Part shown: in pieces, positions 3,596-28,736 of the stretch
Layout of the letters: every line of letters starts with the position of its first letter
How positions within the stretch are numbered: the stretch's first letter is position 1
Sequence record: OK335775.1
DNA: 64,000 bases
From: Escherichia phage PSD2002
Strand: one strand, 5' to 3'
Notes under the pieces: model-generated
Told to the model about the DNA's origin: nothing
What the model saw: the letters and a program-made list of their open reading frames with translations, nothing else
The model's database searches: none
Translations under genes and position numbers: made by a program

Positions 3596-3624
3596 GTTTA
3601 CATCTCCTGTAGGCGTGATACTAT
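3596..3624 (+). promoter_or_regulatory. T-even early promoter (GTTTAC-N17-TACTAT)
   Basis: Match to the T4 early promoter consensus with sigma70-like spacing. Confidence 0.6.
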
Positions 3625-20765: not shown

Positions 20766-22976
20766 ATGATTATTGAAACCGAAAAAGAACAAATCATTGG
20801 TAATGGTGCTAAGTCCACAGGCTTTACTATTCAGGCATCGCCTAAGGTCTTTAAAATTTTGTCATCAGACCTTTATAGTAATAAAGTACGTGCCGTAGTT
20901 CGTGAACTAATTACCAACATGATTGATGCCCATATTCTAAATGGTAATAAAGAACGTTGGAAAGTACAGGTTCCTGGTAAACTGGACCCTCGCTTTGTAT
21001 GCCGTGACTTCGGGCCGGGTATGAGTGATTTCCAAATTCGTGGTGATGAAAACGAAACAGGTTTGTATAACTCTTATTTCGCGTCGTCCAAAACCGCTTC
21101 TAACGATTTCATCGGCGGCTTTGGCCTTGGTTCAAAATCTCCGTTCAGTTATACCGAAACGTTTAATATTACCTCATGGCACAATGGCGAAGTTCGCGGT
21201 TATGTAGCATATATGGATGGTGATGGCCCGCAGATTAAACCTACTTTCGTAGAACCTATGCAGCCAGGTGATAAAACAGGTATCGAAATCACGGTTCCTG
21301 TTGATGAAGAAGATTTCCGTAAGTTTGAAACTGAAGTTCGTTATATCATGCGGCCTTTCATTGGTCTTGGTGATGTAGACGGTGTTGAAGTTGATTATTT
21401 CCCTGAATTTGACGATTACCATCCTGTAACCACTACAAATTATGGCAGCTTCGAACGTTCAGGACTTTATGCAGTTTATGGTGGTATTGTTTATCCATTG
21501 GATTCCGCCTATAATAAAGGCACGTGGATGCGTACTCGCCATGATGTGGTTTATATTAAGTTCCCTATGGGTTCACTGGATATTGCTCCTTCTCGTGAAG
21601 TGATGTCTCTTGATAAACGTACGATGGAAAATATTGCAACCCGTATCGAAGCACTGGATGCAGTGGTCTTTAAAAACGATACACAGGAATGGGTTGAATC
21701 TGATAATCCACGCCATGTTTATCGTGACCTTTCTAACCTTGGTTACAGTGCTCGTGACTATCTTACCAAAAAAGGTGGAACTAGCCTGTTTACTACAGAA
21801 AAATTGACATATGAGAAATTATACCAGCGTTATACCCTTCAAAACGACCTTATTAATTTAGGTGTGGTTTACGAAGTCGTTTCAGACCCGCGTTTGAAAC
21901 GAATTAAGCCGAGTGGTAATACTTCTTCAGTAGCAGGACTTAGTAATTTATTAGGCATTAATAAGAAAGAAATCCATGTTGTTTATGATGATGAAAAAGG
22001 TCGTGTACCTCTGGTTCGAGGACTTTGGGCTCTAGCAATGGACAACAGTGCTTCGGCTAAGAAAATTGTTAAAGAGAACAATATTCCTAAATACGGAACT
22101 GACCTTATTTTTGTCGACCCAAATTCAATGTTGCAAATGCAACAACTTGAAAAGGTTAAAGAACTTTTTAAAGGTGACACAATTCATTTTTATAAAGTCT
22201 CTGAACTGAATAAAATTGTTAAGCCATGGATTCCGGTTACGGTTCGTTCGTCAGAACCGCGTCCTAAAACACCGAGTGCTTATCGTTGGTTCATTAAAGA
22301 CGGGCGCTGGCAACAAGAGACCATGTATTTGACTGCTGCCGAAGCAGAAGAAATTACAGGTTATGTTCTGTTTGGCAGTCGTTCTGATATTATGGGAATG
22401 GATGAAGCTTATGGTATCTTTGACATCAATACCACTACCATGTGTCGTATGGCTAATTTGATTGGTGCTACCGAATTCCATATCATTCGCCCTCAGATTG
22501 CCAAAAAGATTAAAAAGTTAGGCCAATGCGAATGCTTGATGGAAGCTACATTAGAAGCTTATGCTGAAGCCTTAGACGCGGTAGATGTTGATGACTACCT
22601 TGGTAGCAATACTCGAGCTCGGTATTACCTTGAAATCATTGCTAAGTTCCCTCAGCTTAATTTCATGACCAAGTATTTCAGTGATAAGCCGGTAACTGAA
22701 GCATATACTCGTCTGAGTAATTTCTATGATATATTCCGTTATATGAATTTCCATGGTTATATCACTGATGACAAGCTTTCCGTTATCAAGAAAATCTGTA
22801 ATACAACGTTTAATACGTTAACCAATAATGCTTCAAGCAACAATGATAAAATGACTGTACAGTTTGAATCTGATTACCATTTAGTTTCGGACTACATGTA
22901 TCGTCGTGGAACATCCATTACCGAGGCTTCTGTAGCTCAAATCGTTAAATTCATGAAAGCCGTGGAAGCGGCTTAA
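20766..22976 (+). CDS. rIIA: rIIA membrane-associated protein
   Basis: 736 aa; N-terminal ATPase-like region; strong match to T4 rIIA as recalled; followed by rIIB. Confidence 0.95.
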   Translation: MIIETEKEQIIGNGAKSTGFTIQASPKVFKILSSDLYSNKVRAVVRELITNMIDAHILNGNKERWKVQVPGKLDPRFVCRDFGPGMSDFQIRGDENETGLYNSYFASSKTASNDFIGGFGLGSKSPFSYTETFNITSWHNGEVRGYVAYMDGDGPQIKPTFVEPMQPGDKTGIEITVPVDEEDFRKFETEVRYIMRPFIGLGDVDGVEVDYFPEFDDYHPVTTTNYGSFERSGLYAVYGGIVYPLDSAYNKGTWMRTRHDVVYIKFPMGSLDIAPSREVMSLDKRTMENIATRIEALDAVVFKNDTQEWVESDNPRHVYRDLSNLGYSARDYLTKKGGTSLFTTEKLTYEKLYQRYTLQNDLINLGVVYEVVSDPRLKRIKPSGNTSSVAGLSNLLGINKKEIHVVYDDEKGRVPLVRGLWALAMDNSASAKKIVKENNIPKYGTDLIFVDPNSMLQMQQLEKVKELFKGDTIHFYKVSELNKIVKPWIPVTVRSSEPRPKTPSAYRWFIKDGRWQQETMYLTAAEAEEITGYVLFGSRSDIMGMDEAYGIFDINTTTMCRMANLIGATEFHIIRPQIAKKIKKLGQCECLMEATLEAYAEALDAVDVDDYLGSNTRARYYLEIIAKFPQLNFMTKYFSDKPVTEAYTRLSNFYDIFRYMNFHGYITDDKLSVIKKICNTTFNTLTNNASSNNDKMTVQFESDYHLVSDYMYRRGTSITEASVAQIVKFMKAVEAA

Positions 22977-22990
22977 TCTAAGGAAATATT

Positions 22991-23956
22991 ATGTACAATA
23001 TTAAATGTCTGGCTAAATCTGAACAAGAGAAAGTAGTTTCCCTCTATAAATCCGGTAATTATACTCAGCAAGAACTAGCTGACTGGTATGGTGTTTCGGT
23101 TGATACCATTCGTAAAGTTCTGAAAAATGATGAAGAAGCTAAACGTTCTCAAGTGGTTATTACCGGAAATGTTACGGTAACAGTTCCTAACCTGCTGGTT
23201 GTTCCTGTTGAAGCCACTATTGGCGGTTCTCGTCCTGAAATTATTTGGAATGCCAGTTCTAAATTCGTATCCATCACTGAAGGTCGTACAGTATGGAACA
23301 CTACTAATAAGAATAAACATTTCGATGCCATCGTACAGGCTCTTAAAGAATCCCGTTTCGATGATGCAATTAAACTGATTTCTATTAAAGAAGCTGTTAA
23401 AGCATTTGTTAAAGGTAACGTTCGTATTGAAGGTGGACGTCTGGTTTACCAAGGCATTGAATTGCGTTCAGGGCTGATTGACCGTATTATCACTTCAATG
23501 GAAAATGGTGAAGACTTCGAATTCTACCTGCCGTTCCTTGAAAACCTGTTAGAAAACCCAAGCGAAAAAGCTGTACAGCGTCTGTTCGACTTCCTGGTGG
23601 CAAACGACATCAAAATTACTGAAGATGGTCACTTTATTACGTGGAAGGTGGTTAACTCCGATTACACCGACTGCCGTACCGGTACGTTTGATAACTCACC
23701 AGGCAAACCGGTTAAAATGCCTCGTTCTCGTGTAAATGATGACGACGAAGTAACCTGTTCAAGTGGTCTGCACGTTTGCTCTCGTAGTTATATCAGTCAT
23801 TTTGGTAACTCAAGCTGTAAAGTGGTTTCATGTAAAGTTAACCCACGTGATGTTGTTAGTATTCCGGTCGATTACGGTGATGCTAAAATGCGTGTATGTT
23901 ATTATGAAGTTCTAGAAGACGTCACCGAACAGTTCGCAAACGAATACAAATACTAA
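22991..23956 (+). CDS. rIIB: rIIB protein
   Basis: 321 aa directly after rIIA; size and position as T4 rIIB. Confidence 0.9.
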   Translation: MYNIKCLAKSEQEKVVSLYKSGNYTQQELADWYGVSVDTIRKVLKNDEEAKRSQVVITGNVTVTVPNLLVVPVEATIGGSRPEIIWNASSKFVSITEGRTVWNTTNKNKHFDAIVQALKESRFDDAIKLISIKEAVKAFVKGNVRIEGGRLVYQGIELRSGLIDRIITSMENGEDFEFYLPFLENLLENPSEKAVQRLFDFLVANDIKITEDGHFITWKVVNSDYTDCRTGTFDNSPGKPVKMPRSRVNDDDEVTCSSGLHVCSRSYISHFGNSSCKVVSCKVNPRDVVSIPVDYGDAKMRVCYYEVLEDVTEQFANEYKY

Positions 23957-23965
23957 ATCAATAAC

Positions 23966-23981
23966 GGAGGCTTCGGCCTCC
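23966..23981 (+). other. GC hairpin with TTCG loop after rIIB (no U-tract)
   Basis: GGAGGC-TTCG-GCCTCC directly abutting the SD of the next ORF; similar hairpins at 27029-27046, 52620-52633 and 62345-62362. Confidence 0.5.
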
Positions 23982-23993
23982 TAATGAGGAATT

Positions 23994-24191
23994 ATGTTAG
24001 GTTACCAAGCACGTGTAGTTGAAGAATACGACCAGTTGGTTCTTAAAATTAACGCACTAGAAACCTTTATTGAAGGTGGTGTTTTTGAAACTCTTGATAT
24101 CCGTCAACAAGGGTTACTGATTGCACAACTGGACGCGATGGGTGCTTATGCTCATTGTTTAGAGGTTCGTATTTCTTATTTCGGTGAGTAA
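23994..24191 (+). CDS. Hypothetical small protein
   Basis: 65-aa ORF after GC hairpin and SD. Confidence 0.4.
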   Translation: MLGYQARVVEEYDQLVLKINALETFIEGGVFETLDIRQQGLLIAQLDAMGAYAHCLEVRISYFGE

Positions 24192-24192
24192 A

Positions 24193-24492
24193 ATGATTAA
24201 TTATATGAATGTCGGTGAACGCGATATCAAGATTTCTAATTTGCGTGGGTTCCATAAAGCAGGTACTGTTTATTGCGCTAAGCTCGTTAAACACCCGGGT
24301 GATGTTCATTACGCTTTTCTAGAATGCGATGAGGTGGTTGAAGGCGAGTTTCCTTTAGTAGATTCTGATACTTTAGAGCCTAACGACCGAATTTATTATG
24401 GCGAACTTCATATTCGAGGCATTTATGGTGAAGACGAACCCGGGGCTACTCCGATTGGCAGCGATGCCGACATTTACCCTGAAGACATCTGA
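24193..24492 (+). CDS. Hypothetical protein
   Basis: ATG 24193, 1 nt after the previous stop. Confidence 0.4.
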   Translation: MINYMNVGERDIKISNLRGFHKAGTVYCAKLVKHPGDVHYAFLECDEVVEGEFPLVDSDTLEPNDRIYYGELHIRGIYGEDEPGATPIGSDADIYPEDI

Positions 24493-24505
24493 TTTGACAG
24501 GTGAA

Positions 24506-24982
24506 ATGAAGGTTAAGATTAAGGATACCGTACTGTATTCCTTAAGCCAAGACCCGTCCCAAGATAAGAAAGAAGTATTGACTCGGTGTGTCATTGCAAC
24601 GTATGCCGAGTATATGGTTGCTGATTGGTTGAAAGGATATGTTAATAGTGGTCTAGAAGACCATGACGACCCTTATACCTATGCATGGGATGTTTTAGCT
24701 CATCCTATGTATTGTGGACTCCGTGTAGAGGTTAAGACCCATCAATCAGATTCTAAGTGGATTTCCTGTACTACAGGATACTCTGGTGACTTCCCTTATG
24801 GAACAGGGATTAACCTGGGTCCGCTCTTGAATCATAAAGTTGCAGACTGTATAATCATATTCGACACTTCAGTAAATGAGGCAGGCGATGTCCTGTTCAC
24901 TCCTAAGTTCTCTGGTGACAGAGAAGCCATCACAAAGCTAGTCCGTAAGAGTAATTACAACGGCTGGTATCTCGCCTTATAA
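24506..24982 (+). CDS. Hypothetical protein with D...EVK nuclease-like motif (denB position)
   Basis: 158 aa from ATG 24506 (SD AGGTGA); motif YAWDVLAH...LRVEVKTH resembles a PD-(D/E)xK core; lies where T4 has denB. Confidence 0.35.
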   Translation: MKVKIKDTVLYSLSQDPSQDKKEVLTRCVIATYAEYMVADWLKGYVNSGLEDHDDPYTYAWDVLAHPMYCGLRVEVKTHQSDSKWISCTTGYSGDFPYGTGINLGPLLNHKVADCIIIFDTSVNEAGDVLFTPKFSGDREAITKLVRKSNYNGWYLAL

Positions 24983-25058
24983 ATTTTTAAAATAAGTATT
25001 TACATACGCCATGGATGGTGTTACTATCTTCCTATCAACTACACGAGAGGAAAATATT

Positions 25059-25286
25059 ATGACTTCTATTACTTATGTTAAAGCAATCAATCGTAAAATC
25101 GAAGAATATAAATTTGAGAACGGTAAAGTGTTTCACAAGCTTACCAATATTAAAACGGGTAATGTTCAAAAAGATTGGACTGAAGTTACCACTCCTACAG
25201 TAATTAATCTTTACGGTTCTATCGAAAAGTATTGGGAATTTTTAGTAGGTTGGGCTAAACAGCATCCAAAACATTCTGTTGCTTAA
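25059..25286 (+). CDS. Hypothetical small protein
   Basis: ATG 25059 after GAGAGGAAAA; own promoter cassette. Confidence 0.4.
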   Translation: MTSITYVKAINRKIEEYKFENGKVFHKLTNIKTGNVQKDWTEVTTPTVINLYGSIEKYWEFLVGWAKQHPKHSVA

Positions 25287-25342
25287 GTTATAATGCCACG
25301 GATGGTGTTACTATCTTCCTATCAACTAATGAGGAGAACAAA

Positions 25343-25609
25343 ATGGATATCAAATTATATTACGCTAAACACAAAGTTACAGGTATGGTTGTTGCCGCTA
25401 TGTATGATGCATCAGGTGAAGGTGATGATGTTACTACAGAGTTATCTCTTTCTGAATGTAAATTTCTCCGTCCTTTAATCGCATCAAAGGAAGATTTACA
25501 AAAACTTATCGACGGTAAACTGGATAATGTTGACGGCATAGATATTCTTTATGACCTTCGTACTGCATTGCACAGGGGATTAATTGAGATAAAAGAGGTG
25601 GTGTTTTGA
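25343..25609 (+). CDS. Hypothetical small protein
   Basis: 88-aa ORF after GAGGAGAA; promoter cassette near-identical to the upstream one. Confidence 0.4.
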   Translation: MDIKLYYAKHKVTGMVVAAMYDASGEGDDVTTELSLSECKFLRPLIASKEDLQKLIDGKLDNVDGIDILYDLRTALHRGLIEIKEVVF

Positions 25610-25699
25610 GTAGCAAAATGTGGTGCCTTATTTGGATGGCCTGTATCCCAGTGATTTGCGTATGTTTTAGTTTATTGTTGTGGAAATTGGCATAAATCA

Positions 25700-25728
25700 G
25701 TATACATCTCCGTTAATCATGATACTAT
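25700..25728 (+). promoter_or_regulatory. Early promoter
   Basis: GTATAC-N17-TACTAT, with inverted repeat CATCTCC/GGAGATG. Confidence 0.5.
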
Positions 25729-25754
25729 AGACCTATCAACTAATGGAGATGATT

Positions 25755-25865
25755 ATGAAAAACTTACTTAAAGCAATTTGGAACATGTTTGTGTTGTTAA
25801 TGGTATTGAGCATTTTCCCAATCGTTTTTATGATTGACCATGTACGTGTATTCTTTAACTTCTGA
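25755..25865 (+). CDS. Hypothetical small membrane peptide
   Basis: 36-aa hydrophobic ORF after promoter 25700-25728. Confidence 0.3.
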   Translation: MKNLLKAIWNMFVLLMVLSIFPIVFMIDHVRVFFNF

Positions 25866-25875
25866 GGAAAATATT

Positions 25876-26088
25876 ATGAAACTTTTTAAAGATGTTGCAG
25901 TTGGCGAGAGCTTTGTATTACATAATGGTCAACAACTGATTCGTATTTCTCCTTTGCAAGTTGGGACCGAATTACAACCTGTTAATGCTACAGACCTTTA
26001 TGATTCAACTAAGCGCTTTTGTGTAGGACCCAGTGTACAGTGTCTTACCGTTGATGAACTGATGGCTATTTCTGTTGACGCTGAATAA
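25876..26088 (+). CDS. Hypothetical small protein
   Basis: ATG 25876 after GAGGAAAA. Confidence 0.4.
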   Translation: MKLFKDVAVGESFVLHNGQQLIRISPLQVGTELQPVNATDLYDSTKRFCVGPSVQCLTVDELMAISVDAE

Positions 26089-26098
26089 GGAAAATATT

Positions 26099-26443
26099 AT
26101 GTCTAAATTATTTTTTGGTAATCGCAACATTATGTTCTTTAAACAGATTAGCATGTCAGAAACATTTGATTTAAGTTATTCAGGCGACACAAAAGCTGTT
26201 AACCTTAAAAATTTAGCGTCTGCAGAATTTGCATTCTATCAGGACCCTGAAACTGGTTTCTACAAATTTATTAAGTTCCGCATGACTATGGACCGTGATT
26301 ATCGTGACGTTTATTATACAAGTTATGAAAGTGTTATCAATGCAATTCGTGAAGCTTATGGATTGGATTCATTATCTCTTGACCGCCTGTATAATGCAAG
26401 CCTTTACACCAGCGGATTTATTTTAGAACAGCTACAAAAATAG
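26099..26443 (+). CDS. Hypothetical protein
   Basis: 114-aa ORF after AAGGAAAA. Confidence 0.4.
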   Translation: MSKLFFGNRNIMFFKQISMSETFDLSYSGDTKAVNLKNLASAEFAFYQDPETGFYKFIKFRMTMDRDYRDVYYTSYESVINAIREAYGLDSLSLDRLYNASLYTSGFILEQLQK

Positions 26444-26471
26444 TTTACAACCTCGAGAATCATGTTATAAT
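26443..26471 (+). promoter_or_regulatory. Early promoter upstream of ndd
   Basis: GTTTAC-N17-TATAAT. Confidence 0.6.
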
Positions 26472-26520
26472 GGTTCTCGTTGACTGGATAACAAAACATT
26501 AATCTACTGAGGAAATTGAT

Positions 26521-26970
26521 ATGAATACTTATATGACTCGCCGTAACGTTCTGTCTGCTGGTGCTACTACTGTTGCTTATGTTAAGAACGGTGAATACCA
26601 AAATGGTAAACCTTCTAAAGAAATCTCTGCTCAGCCAGGCTTCTACTTCTTTGTTAAAGGCGGAGCTGATTCTCGTGTCGTAGCGGCTCGTTTTTATGTC
26701 GGTAATCAACGTTCGGCCCAAGGGCTCGACGGTATCATGGCTAACATTCGTAAGAAACGTTCTCAATCAGCTCGCACTATGGCAGTGAACGGTGTTGTGT
26801 ATGAAGTTCTTTATGTACCGGCTTCTAAGATGAAACCCCTGACTACAGGTTTTGGTAAGGGTCAAATTGCAATGGCTTTCACTCGTAATCATAGTTCCGA
26901 CCTCCAGACACTGGAAGAAATGAACCGTATGTTGGCTGATAACTTTAAATTCATCCTGCAGGCTTACTAA
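26521..26970 (+). CDS. ndd: Ndd nucleoid disruption protein
   Basis: 149 aa; C-terminal LTTGFGKGQ...[15 protein letters not shown] block matches T4 Ndd as recalled; located between rIIB and 52. Confidence 0.8.
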
Positions 26971-27057
26971 TGAGTAATTTCCATAACGAGCATGTGATGC
27001 AGTTCTATCGTAACAATCTTAAAACTAAAGGCGTCTTCGGACGCTAATGAGGAAAAT

Positions 27058-27219
27058 ATGGTTATCCTAGTTTTTATTGAACTTATTATGGCTATAGTCT
27101 GTTCAGTTTGCTTCTTTTTAGGTGTGTGGGCCCCTGGTCCGATATTCTTAAGTTTTCTGCTTATTGGTTGGGTTCTTTCTACTTTTGTCGGTTTACTTAA
27201 GACGATTAAAAATGATTAA
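27058..27219 (+). CDS. Small membrane protein
   Basis: 53-aa hydrophobic ORF after GAGGAAAA. Confidence 0.35.
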   Translation: MVILVFIELIMAIVCSVCFFLGVWAPGPIFLSFLLIGWVLSTFVGLLKTIKND

Positions 27220-27352
27220 TAAAATCCTGGGCTACTCGTTAGCCCTTGCTGCTTTATTAGTAGCGCTGTATTACGGAGTAATGTTCGGACTTATCCAAGT
27301 TGTGCTTTTTATTTCCGATGTTATTATGGCTATTCATTCACTAGTATGGTAA
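27212..27352 (+). CDS. Small membrane protein (ac-like position)
   Basis: 46-aa hydrophobic ORF immediately upstream of gene 52. Confidence 0.35.
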   Translation: MINKILGYSLALAALLVALYYGVMFGLIQVVLFISDVIMAIHSLVW

Positions 27353-27356
27353 AATT

Positions 27357-28736
27357 ATGGCTGATGTAATTGATACCCTTTTTAAACAGGCTTTAGATGT
27401 TTACGATGATTCTTTCACTCGTCGTGACTTAAAAAGTATTATCGACAACGAAGCATTGGCTTATGCAATGTATACTGTCGAAAACCGAGCCATTCCAAAT
27501 ATGATTGATGGCTTTAAACCTGTACAACGTTTTGTAGTGGCTCGTTGTCTTGATATGGCTCGTGGTAATAAAGAAAAATTCCACAAACTGGCTTCTATCG
27601 CTGGTGGTGTAGCCGACCTCGGATATCACCACGGTGAAGGTTCTGCTCAGGAAGCAGGGGCTTTGATGGCTAACACATGGAACAACAACTATCCATTGTT
27701 AGACGGCCAAGGTAACTTCGGTTCTCGATTGGTTCAAAAGGCTGCAGCCTCTCGTTATATTTTTGCTCGTATCGGAAGTAACTTTGCAAAAGTTTATAAG
27801 GACACAGAATATGCTCCGGTTCATGCGGATGTCGAACATAAGCCACCGGCTTTTTATCTGCCTATTATTCCTACTGTTCTTCTTAATGGCGTTTCCGGTA
27901 TTGCAACTGGTTATGCAACTAATATTCTTCCTCATAGTTTTGATTCTGTTAAGAAAGCTGTATTGCAAGTTCTTCAGGAAAAACGTGTAACCAAGCCTAA
28001 AGTGGCTTATCCTGAATTCCGTGGTGAAGTTGTTGAGATTGAGCCTGGTAGTTATGAGATTCGCGGAACGTATAAGTTCACATCCCGAACCCAAATGCAT
28101 ATCACGGAAATTCCATACAAATACGACCGTGAAACATATGTGGCTAAGGTATTAGACCCTCTGGAAGACAAAGGGTATATCACATATGATGACGATTGTG
28201 ATGAGAACGGTTTCGGCTTCAAGGTTAAGATTCGTAAAGAATATGAATTGCCCACTGATGAAGATAAGAAACACGAAAAACTCATGAAGGACTTCGGGTT
28301 AATTGAACGTCGTTCACAAAACCTGACTGTCATTAATGAGAAAGGTAAACTTAAGGTTTACGAAGATGCAGTTGAACTGATTCGTGATTTCGTTGAGGTC
28401 CGTAAGACCTTTGTACAGAAACGTATTGATGGTAAAATCATCGAAACCGAAGAAGCTTTCAAACTGGCACTGGCTAAAGCCACATTTATCAAAGATGTTA
28501 TTGATGGAATTGTAGTTATCCAAGGTAAGACTCGTAAGGTTTTAACCGAAGAATTGGCTGGTAATAAAGTCTACGGCGGATATGCCGATAAACTGGTTGC
28601 AATGAACATTTTCCATATCACTTCTGACGAAGCTAAGAAACTGGCTTTGGAAGCCAAGGCTAAGAAGGAAGAGCATCAATACTGGAAAACCACTGATGTT
28701 GTAACTGAGTATGTTAAAGATTTGGAGGCTCTATGA
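27357..28736 (+). CDS. 52: DNA topoisomerase II medium (GyrA-like) subunit
   Basis: 459 aa; GyrA N-terminal breakage-reunion motifs; matches T4 gp52. Confidence 0.95.
   Translation: MADVIDTLFKQALDVYDDSFTRRDLKSIIDNEALAYAMYTVENRAIPNMIDGFKPVQRFVVARCLDMARGNKEKFHKLASIAGGVADLGYHHGEGSAQEAGALMANTWNNNYPLLDGQGNFGSRLVQKAAASRYIFARIGSNFAKVYKDTEYAPVHADVEHKPPAFYLPIIPTVLLNGVSGIATGYATNILPHSFDSVKKAVLQVLQEKRVTKPKVAYPEFRGEVVEIEPGSYEIRGTYKFTSRTQMHITEIPYKYDRETYVAKVLDPLEDKGYITYDDDCDENGFGFKVKIRKEYELPTDEDKKHEKLMKDFGLIERRSQNLTVINEKGKLKVYEDAVELIRDFVEVRKTFVQKRIDGKIIETEEAFKLALAKATFIKDVIDGIVVIQGKTRKVLTEELAGNKVYGGYADKLVAMNIFHITSDEAKKLALEAKAKKEEHQYWKTTDVVTEYVKDLEAL

Follow-up and report, generated by a model that had tools for sequence, protein, structure and literature searches.

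The rIIB-ndd interval of Escherichia phage PSD2002 as a T-even variable early region with repeated promoter and ribosome-binding cassettes

We analyzed the interval between rIIB and ndd in a 64,000-nucleotide stretch of DNA from Escherichia phage PSD2002 (sequence record OK335775.1), referred to below as the window. The interval is most probably a Dhakavirus form of the T-even rIIB-ndd variable early region, in which small accessory genes are shuffled at repeated cassettes. It is the Dhakavirus counterpart of the T4 rIIB-denB.1-denB-ndd.6...ndd.1-ndd region, and its flanks hold rIIA, rIIB, ndd, stp, and the gene for topoisomerase gp52. When positions 23900–26600 were compared with phage sequences, 84 records matched. 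The closest was phage QL01 (97.4% over the full length), and the named matches were Dhakavirus, that is, JS98-like T4-type coliphages, together with VR26, now placed in Gaprivervirus.

Between rIIB (22991–23956) and ndd (26521–26970) lie eight open reading frames (ORFs) that span 23994–26443; all interval features described here are on the plus strand. As listed, ORF1 to ORF8 encode 65, 99, 158, 75, 88, 36, 70, and 114 residues. The original prediction described these eight ORFs and their size range of 36–158 residues, and both agree with the ORF list, but a ninth gene, the 29-residue ORF5b (25606–25695), had been overlooked, and DenB, listed as the 158-residue ORF3, is most likely 185 residues long. 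The description of the ORFs as unrecognizable does not hold, because ORF1 is a DenB.1/Sequestin protein, ORF3 is DenB, and homologs of Ndd.6, Ndd.4, and Ndd.1 are present as well. Neither do all ORFs match well characterized T4 proteins. Judged by similarity, a function is known for only two of the nine genes, ORF1 (Sequestin) and ORF3 (DenB). Three are homologs of T4 Ndd.6, Ndd.4, and Ndd.1, proteins with no assigned role, and for four (ORF2, ORF4, ORF5, and ORF8) the T4 interval holds no intact counterpart. Each frame is under purifying selection, with ratios of nonsynonymous to synonymous polymorphism (pN/pS) of 0.0–0.45 in comparison with nine Dhakavirus loci. The G+C content is 0.34–0.36 in the variable half, compared with 0.39–0.44 in ORF1–3.

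Overall, this is a typical T-even variable early region that is for the most part ordinary but offers a few leads. It supplies a Dhakavirus case of the established picture in which the host-interaction genes of T4-type phages change fast, are gathered in a few variable early regions, and are reshuffled at cassettes. The most useful new points concern annotation, namely where DenB starts, the presence of the Ndd.6-like peptide, and the Sequestin name for DenB.1; the leads are the pairing of ORF2, a DUF7418 protein, with denB and the ORF4 family.

Repeated cassettes and gene turnover

The early-promoter motif TACTAT-NNN-CCTATCAACTA occurs 16 times in the window, where 0.27 copies are expected, and always on the plus strand. 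The copies are at 3619, 4568, 11113, 11851, 16953, 25022, 25309, 25723, 28899, 31277, 42397, 46312, 47018, 47308, 54231, and 60215. When aligned, they share an A/T-rich stretch, GTTTACA, a spacer of ~16 nucleotides, a TGn-extended −10 element, a conserved leader, and a GGAG-type Shine-Dalgarno sequence. Besides the −35 and −10 elements, the transcribed leader (aga)CCTATCAACTA is conserved in the early promoters, and the GGAG-type Shine-Dalgarno sequence follows it. Three copies fall within the 2.45 kb of the interval, a density about five times the window average (Poisson estimate, p ~0.02).

These three cassettes precede ORF4, ORF5, and ORF6, with −10 elements at 25022, 25309, and 25723, so that three of the eight listed ORFs, and not most of them as originally proposed, have an early-promoter cassette. 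The ORF4 cassette (24999–25041) is complete, with the −35 element TTTACA at 24999–25004, the TGn-extended −10 element TACTAT at 25022–25027, the leader CTTCCTATCAACTA, and an A/T-rich stretch upstream. The ORF5 cassette (25295–25328) is partial and is the downstream copy of a 34-nucleotide repeat; it keeps the extended −10 element and the leader. The ORF6 cassette (25700–25742) consists of GTATACA, a 16-nucleotide spacer, TACTAT at 25723–25728, and the leader AGACCTATCAACTA. A near-consensus early promoter of ndd (26444–26471; TTTACA, a 16-nucleotide spacer, and TATAAT with TG) forms the right edge of the variable interval. A second element, the ribosome-binding cassette AGGAAAATATTATG, precedes ORF4, ORF7, and ORF8 and occurs six times in the window, compared with 0.07 expected copies. 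ORF7 and ORF8 have this element only, without a promoter cassette.

Several other candidate signals were discarded. A MotA-type middle promoter near 25279 was rejected by eye since its TGCTTA box is only 4 nucleotides from TATAAT, which is too close, and weak σ70 matches at 24372 and 24827 are at chance level. The N-terminal extensions MDGVTIFLS... that some records give for ORF4 and ORF5 start within the promoter cassette and are artefacts.

Comparison among relatives confirms that the interval is hyperplastic. Gene order is constant over the 19 loci compared, yet the slots are filled differently; ten Dhakavirus loci and seven other T4-like loci vary by whole-gene insertions or deletions and by divergent alleles, and the insertions and deletions break exactly inside the cassettes. 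The clearest case is the ORF4 module, 287 bp located between 34-nucleotide direct repeats (25008–25041 and 25295–25328) that are 97% identical. This module is missing in phages Bp7, WG01, and dhabil, where the alignment blocks overlap by 33–34 nucleotides exactly at the repeat. These three phages have a single chimeric cassette, whose left half corresponds to the ORF4 copy and whose right half corresponds to the ORF5 copy.

Other slots have changed in a similar way. In phage E33 (locus L007, 1457–1714), the ORF4 slot holds a paralog of ORF5 with 36% identity (E = 7e-15). Phage dhabil (locus L008, 1874–2065) has an extra promoter cassette and a 63-residue ORF at the site of the ORF6 cassette. 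In JS10 (locus L002, about 2617–2763), there is an unannotated 48-residue ORF, MGNRIYKVKLHGKVITTVSFNFYISADCARDILIEEGYSEYIQIEEVL, between ndd.4 and ndd.1, and it is flanked by 19-nucleotide direct repeats, TTCTGAGGAAAATATTATG, of the ribosome-binding cassette. From these flanking repeats it follows that the ribosome-binding cassette is also a recombination joint.

Replacement of alleles is a second mode of variation. ORF2, ORF7, and ORF8 each occur in two allele classes, with ~95–99% and ~41–60% identity to the window, and these alleles assort independently among otherwise similar phages. In Gaprivervirus VR26 (locus L021, 3930–4274), the ORF8 allele is 94% identical to that of the window, whereas denB is only 48% and DUF7418 only 34% identical, which suggests that this one gene was recently exchanged between the genera.

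Such turnover has precedents. In RB49 and phi1, a rare gene lies between two PeSL cassettes in one phage, and one cassette is present in the other; the crossovers were mapped between the −10 element and the Shine-Dalgarno sequence or ATG, and excised mini-circles were detected (Arbiol 2010, PMC2839356). Exchange of ndd.4/.5 between T4 and PST has been reported within the rIIB-ndd interval itself (Comeau 2014, PMC4122927). The JS98 group was analyzed in neither paper, being absent from PMC4122927 and mentioned once in PMC2839356. By analogy with the PeSL cassettes, the shuffling mechanism of the PSD2002 interval appears to be of this known kind.

Together, these features suggest a same-strand array of small accessory genes that would be expressed at the start of infection. 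ORF1–3 are closely packed, with a 1-nucleotide gap and a 68-nucleotide overlap, and would be read from upstream through a stable hairpin. The cassette-driven units would be ORF4, ORF5 with ORF5b, and ORF6 with ORF7 and ORF8. Homologous recombination probably drives the gain, loss, and exchange of modules; it would act between copies of the promoter cassette, over the 34 nucleotides from the −10 element into the leader, and between copies of the ribosome-binding cassette. As for the products, a dimer of ORF1 would sequester 3′-cyclic ADP-ribose (3′cADPR) and so disarm type I Thoeris, and DenB would help destroy host DNA and would also be the trigger sensed by retron Eco2. ORF2, ORF4, ORF5, ORF5b, ORF6, ORF7, and ORF8 are probably dispensable host-interaction factors.

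The hairpin, GGAGGCUUCGGCCUCC, is a C(UUCG)G tetraloop structure at 23966–23981, in the gap between the rIIB stop codon and ORF1, with a free energy of −12.2 kcal/mol (z = −2.2). It is not an intrinsic terminator on the plus strand because no T-run follows it. T4 has intercistronic CUUCGG hairpins, and by analogy we infer an mRNA-stabilizing role. A search of Rfam with 22900–27400, at E values up to 1, gave no match.

A T4 deletion of ~3.4 kb between 52 and rIIB, which includes denB and ndd.1–ndd.6, is viable on laboratory strains, but the phage-induced stimulation of phospholipid synthesis is lost. By analogy, this phenotype fits dispensable host-interaction genes, although it does not identify the responsible gene, and it raises the possibility of an envelope-related role for the membrane peptides.

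Weighing of alternative explanations

The interval could be viewed as a dedicated counter-defense island in which each small ORF neutralizes one bacterial immune system. ORF1 belongs to a proven anti-Thoeris family, the neighborhood is rich in host-conflict genes (rIIA/B, DenB, Ndd, and Stp), and the genes are small, early, variable, and present as divergent alleles, which are typical anti-defense traits. However, no interval ORF besides ORF1 matches a known anti-defense family in Pfam, PHROG, NCBIfam, or PADLOC, and two of the ORFs are tiny membrane peptides. The low pN/pS values give no sign of positive selection, and the sole phenotype in the paper on the T4 52-rIIB deletion concerns lipid synthesis, with normal growth on laboratory strains. 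We therefore consider such an island unlikely. The role of the cassettes can be questioned as well: they may be conserved merely as promoters and ribosome-binding sites, with the insertions and deletions arising from illegitimate recombination or nuclease-driven gene conversion. Their occurrence across the window, including sites outside the variability comparison, would agree with this, as would the lack of a PeSL stem-loop at the three interval cassettes. What makes such an origin quite improbable is the position of the end points. The ORF4 module, the dhabil module, and the JS10 48-residue ORF are three independent events that all end within direct repeats of 19–34 nucleotides, and the shorter genome keeps a single chimeric repeat. 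In addition, the ORF list, Pfam, and PHROG reveal no homing endonuclease gene among the interval genes, and mini-circles from the same type of crossover have been demonstrated in RB49 and phi1 (PMC2839356). Finally, the small ORFs other than those of DenB and DenB.1 have no known function, ORF4 is absent from most relatives, and T4 has lost DUF7418 and ORF5 with no obvious harm, all of which would be expected of nonfunctional filler or annotation artefacts. This is hardly credible in view of the purifying selection in all frames, the homologs at the same positions in several genera (28–64% identity), the conserved start codon of the 29-residue peptide, and the confidently predicted fold of ORF4.

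The reading of the interval as a variable early region shuffled at its cassettes is thus preferred, but several points weigh against parts of it. The ORF5 cassette has no recognizable −35 element, and the 3′ end of ORF4 occupies its place. We infer the use and timing of the promoters from sequence, and insertion and deletion are indistinguishable in present-day sequences. Unlike PeSL, no stem-loop or terminator-like site lies beside the cassettes at 24999, 25295, and 25700. The Sequestin role of ORF1 is extrapolated from 56% identity, and three of the 13 family members tested do not inhibit Thoeris. Five of the nine proteins have no assigned function, and profile searches of PDB sequences, NCBIfam, and PADLOC gave nothing. 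In the PDB searches, neither single-sequence queries with ORF1, ORF2, the 158-residue form of DenB, and ORF8 nor profile queries with the DUF7418, ORF5, and Ndd.1 families gave a significant match; NCBIfam returned one sub-threshold chance match and PADLOC no match.

Elsewhere in the window, two cassettes follow a T-run that resembles the end of a terminator.

Genes of the interval

The expectation that the interval carries host-nuclease and counter-defense functions is borne out at the level of homology by DenB and ORF1. ORF1 (23994–24191) encodes a stand-alone protein of 65 residues with an isoelectric point (pI) of 4.5. It matches Pfam family PF21825 with 70.9 bits (cut-off, 24.8) over model positions 3–60 of 61, and it is 56% identical to T4 DenB.1, which has the same position in the locus. 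Its pN/pS is 0–0.21. According to a precomputed look-up of Pfam names, the newer name of PF21825 is "Sequestin." Sequestins are helical proteins of 60–80 residues, a size range that includes ORF1, and their dimers sequester 3′cADPR and thereby inactivate type I Thoeris; of the 13 family members tested, 10 were active against Thoeris, and T4 Y16O (64 residues) conferred resistance when knocked into a Thoeris-sensitive phage (bioRxiv 10.1101/2025.07.12.664507). The Y16O primers printed in the preprint match both ends of T4 denB.1, and Y16O is therefore DenB.1. The ligand contacts of SequestinB are Arg-7, Glu-11, Gln-45, and Arg-59, of which the Glu, Gln, and Arg are essential (bioRxiv 10.1101/2025.07.12.664507). 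All four are present in ORF1 and kept in T4 DenB.1, JS10, and VR5, as matched by position, with the SequestinB N terminus read from a primer and not from a full alignment. Dhakavirus phages are not named in the supplements of the preprint (bioRxiv 10.1101/2025.07.12.664507). By homology, ORF1 is a member of the described anti-defense family Sequestin and a predicted 3′cADPR sponge against type I Thoeris. The DenB.1 proteins of JS98-like therapeutic coliphages should be named Sequestin-family anti-Thoeris sponges.

ORF2 (24193–24492) begins 1 nucleotide past the ORF1 stop codon and encodes 99 residues (pI 4.4; pN/pS about 0.1). It belongs to DUF7418 (PF24193, phrog_2237), which it matches over the full length with 140.4 bits (gathering score, 27; E = 2.9e-41). 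The end of ORF2 and the start of DenB overlap in different frames over 68 nucleotides (24425–24492), which are thus dual-coding; this overlap, like the upstream ATG of denB, is shared by Dhakavirus and T4. DUF7418 is found in 728 phage records, compared with 1092 for DenB, and it lies immediately 5′ of denB at every locus inspected, namely in six T4-like genera (Dhakavirus, Mosigvirus, Jiaodavirus, Karamvirus, Tequatrovirus [OE5505], and Gaprivervirus) as well as in Citrobacter phage Ursula, Klebsiella kv_tblp2, and a metagenomic contig. An overlap of 20–68 nucleotides between DUF7418 and the denB start, annotated or inferred, is seen at most of these loci. In T4 (NC_000866, about 167,602–167,715), the denB.1-denB spacer and the first codons of the annotated denB contain an unannotated 37-residue ORF, MIYMNIGDSDIKESLNAENESWVTETISDSDIYPIEQ, which is an in-frame, internally deleted DUF7418 relic. 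This relic is missing from the RefSeq annotation; the gene is intact in Tequatrovirus OE5505 (109 residues) and in the majority of other T4-like phages. Because T4 DenB is active without DUF7418, the latter is not required for catalysis. A regulatory or protective link between DUF7418 and DenB is conceivable, with DUF7418 as a candidate modulator or "safety catch" for this toxic nuclease. If so, it could influence the tripping of nuclease-sensing defenses such as retron Eco2.

DenB is endonuclease IV, and its 185-residue form occupies 24425–24982. It matches phrog_1360 (E = 3e-80), and ORF3 is 72% identical to T4 DenB over 158 residues. The 158-residue form begins at an internal ATG at 24506; it is also annotated in some records, including JS10, Bp7, and OE5505. 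Conservation of the upstream part indicates that the protein very probably starts at 24425 and has 185 residues, as in T4, and not 158. The additional 27 N-terminal residues are conserved across genera. The pattern xxNPGLxRLxxxPTFTLxxxDLTxE and the upstream ATG are kept in T4, Dhakavirus, Mosigvirus, Karamvirus, and phage Ursula; in Jiaodavirus the conservation is looser. Several of the compared lineages lack the internal methionine. Furthermore, the substitutions that JS10 and VR5 carry in the ORF2/denB overlap are almost all nonsynonymous in the ORF2 frame, a pattern that constraint on the denB frame would produce. In JS98-like therapeutic coliphages, DenB should be annotated with 185 residues, overlapping DUF7418.

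DenB cuts single-stranded DNA that contains deoxycytidine (dC) during the breakdown of host DNA, and recent work shows that retron Eco2 is triggered when DenB nicks its multicopy single-stranded DNA (msDNA). Mutation of Ser-176 weakens the T4 enzyme, and Gly-71, Gly-180, and Trp-181 are the sites of T2 mutants that escape retron Eco2. All four residues are present in PSD2002 DenB (185-residue numbering from the ATG at 24425). By homology, a dC-specific single-strand DNA endonuclease activity is expected, from which modified cytosine would protect the phage DNA.

ORF4 (25059–25286) encodes a basic protein of 75 residues (pI 9.4) without a match in the family libraries. It occurs in six of 50,697 phage records (among them QL01, LQ5, KIT01, and UGJNEcP3/4), or ~7% of the related records, and, among 5.8 billion proteins, forms a single cluster at 90%. 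HMMER, run exhaustively against 1.84 billion representatives, detected two more true relatives of 75 and 73 residues with 54–57% identity, each representing a further 50% cluster; the other three long matches (P0016–P0018) were repeat artefacts. Both relatives are encoded immediately 3′ of denB on metagenomic T4-like contigs, and the family is thus rare yet conserved in position. A search of IMG/VR returned QL01 alone, and a scan of JGI metagenomes gave no match. AlphaFold2 with a three-sequence alignment produced a best model with a predicted local distance difference test score (pLDDT) of 91.6 and a predicted template modeling score (pTM) of 0.79; the other four models scored 67–75. The predicted topology consists of four strands, two helices, and a final strand, and the BFVD model of the QL01 copy superposes on it with a TM score of 0.89. 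The pN/pS of 0–0.17 is weak evidence, as ORF4 differs from its relatives by merely 1–5 nucleotides.

ORF5 (25343–25609) encodes an acidic protein of 88 residues that matches phrog_2390 and has a pN/pS of 0.02–0.2. Homologs fill this slot in Mosigvirus, Tequatrovirus OE5505, Gaprivervirus, and Citrobacter phage Ursula; T4 has none there. Word-indexed homolog searches with ORF5 and ORF8 yielded close relatives only. The overlooked ORF5b is an Ndd.6-like single-span membrane peptide (phrog_8851, E = 4e-16) that is 48% identical to T4 Ndd.6 and has a Kyte-Doolittle mean of 2.65. Its TTG start codon overlaps the ORF5 stop codon (TTGA); the corresponding codon of JS10, a Mosigvirus, and a Tequatrovirus is ATG. 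The internal methionine of the peptide is not conserved. Several database records lack the Ndd.6-like peptide and some of the mini-ORFs flanked by cassettes.

ORF6 (25755–25865) is the 36-residue membrane peptide of the original prediction, which stands. It is Ndd.4-like (phrog_3098, E = 4e-21; 61% identity to T4 Ndd.4), with one hydrophobic span and a 19-residue Kyte-Doolittle mean of 2.36. ORF7 (25876–26088), behind the ribosome-binding cassette GAGGAAAATATTATG, encodes an acidic Ndd.1 homolog of 70 residues (phrog_2183, E = 3e-29; 51% identity to T4 Ndd.1); its two allele classes in Dhakavirus are at 99% and about 55%. T4 Ndd.6, Ndd.4, and Ndd.1 are colinear with ORF5b, ORF6, and ORF7. ORF8 (26099–26443; 114 residues) matches phrog_10053 and is found in 92 phage records, in classes of 93% or more and about 55%. 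Its AlphaFold2 model from eight sequences has low confidence (pLDDT 59.5), and Foldseek with this model gave no match in the PDB at E ≤ 0.001. One database record labels an ORF8 homolog as KTSC, but eight family members gave no KTSC match at E values up to 10.

It is doubtful, though conceivable, that an undescribed factor sits in the interval; DUF7418 would be the best candidate and the ORF4 family the second. Our order of priority for experiments starts with DUF7418, which may be a partner of DenB, and continues with the ORF4 family, ORF5, Ndd.1, and ORF8.

To the right of ndd, three further small ORFs were observed. Directly 3′ of ndd, positions 26970–27047 contain a 25-residue ORF, and JS10 annotates stp at the same position; in T4, Stp activates the PrrC anticodon nuclease of the host. 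Before gene 52 (27058–27352) are two adjoining small hydrophobic ORFs of 53 and ~46 residues (ATG at 27212 for the latter), which share a 35-nucleotide repeat (27061–27095 and 27299–27333) that is 71% identical. Bp7 annotates both as 52.1-like membrane proteins.

Comparison with known systems

ORF1 resembles the Sequestins and T4 Y16O in its length, its Pfam membership, its position next to rIIB, and the Arg/Glu/Gln/Arg pocket positions, whereas 44% of its residues are unlike those of the tested T4 protein. DenB shares with the T4 and T2 enzymes the 185-residue architecture with its N-terminal stretch and the mutation-sensitive residues, in addition to the 72% identity. In contrast to T4, denB of PSD2002 and of most other genera overlaps an intact DUF7418 gene.

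The interval as a whole has the same flanking genes, strand, and order as the rIIB-ndd region of T4. The orthologs are identical to their T4 counterparts at 56% (DenB.1), 72% (DenB), 48% (Ndd.6), 61% (Ndd.4), 51% (Ndd.1), and 62% (Ndd). T4 lacks ORF4, ORF5, and ORF8, and its DUF7418 is reduced to the 37-residue relic. Conversely, T4 ndd.5, ndd.3, ndd.2a, and ndd.2 had no match in the interval in the window-to-T4 direction; the reverse search was not run.

Two features set the PSD2002 cassettes apart from the PeSL of RB49/phi1, T4/PST, and KVP40/nt-1, in addition to the stem-loop discussed above. The conserved core is formed by the −10 element with the transcribed leader CCTATCAACTA, and in this group a promoter-less ribosome-binding cassette, AGGAAAATATTATG, also marks a junction. 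In other respects, the two systems are alike. In both, a σ70-type early promoter is present in many copies (16 in the window, compared with 0.27 expected), and the repeated early-promoter cassettes are concentrated in variable regions, where they flank the variable genes. In both, one phage has a rare gene between two cassettes where its sister phage has one chimeric cassette, and the junctions of the insertions and deletions lie within the cassette between the −10 element and the Shine-Dalgarno sequence or ATG.

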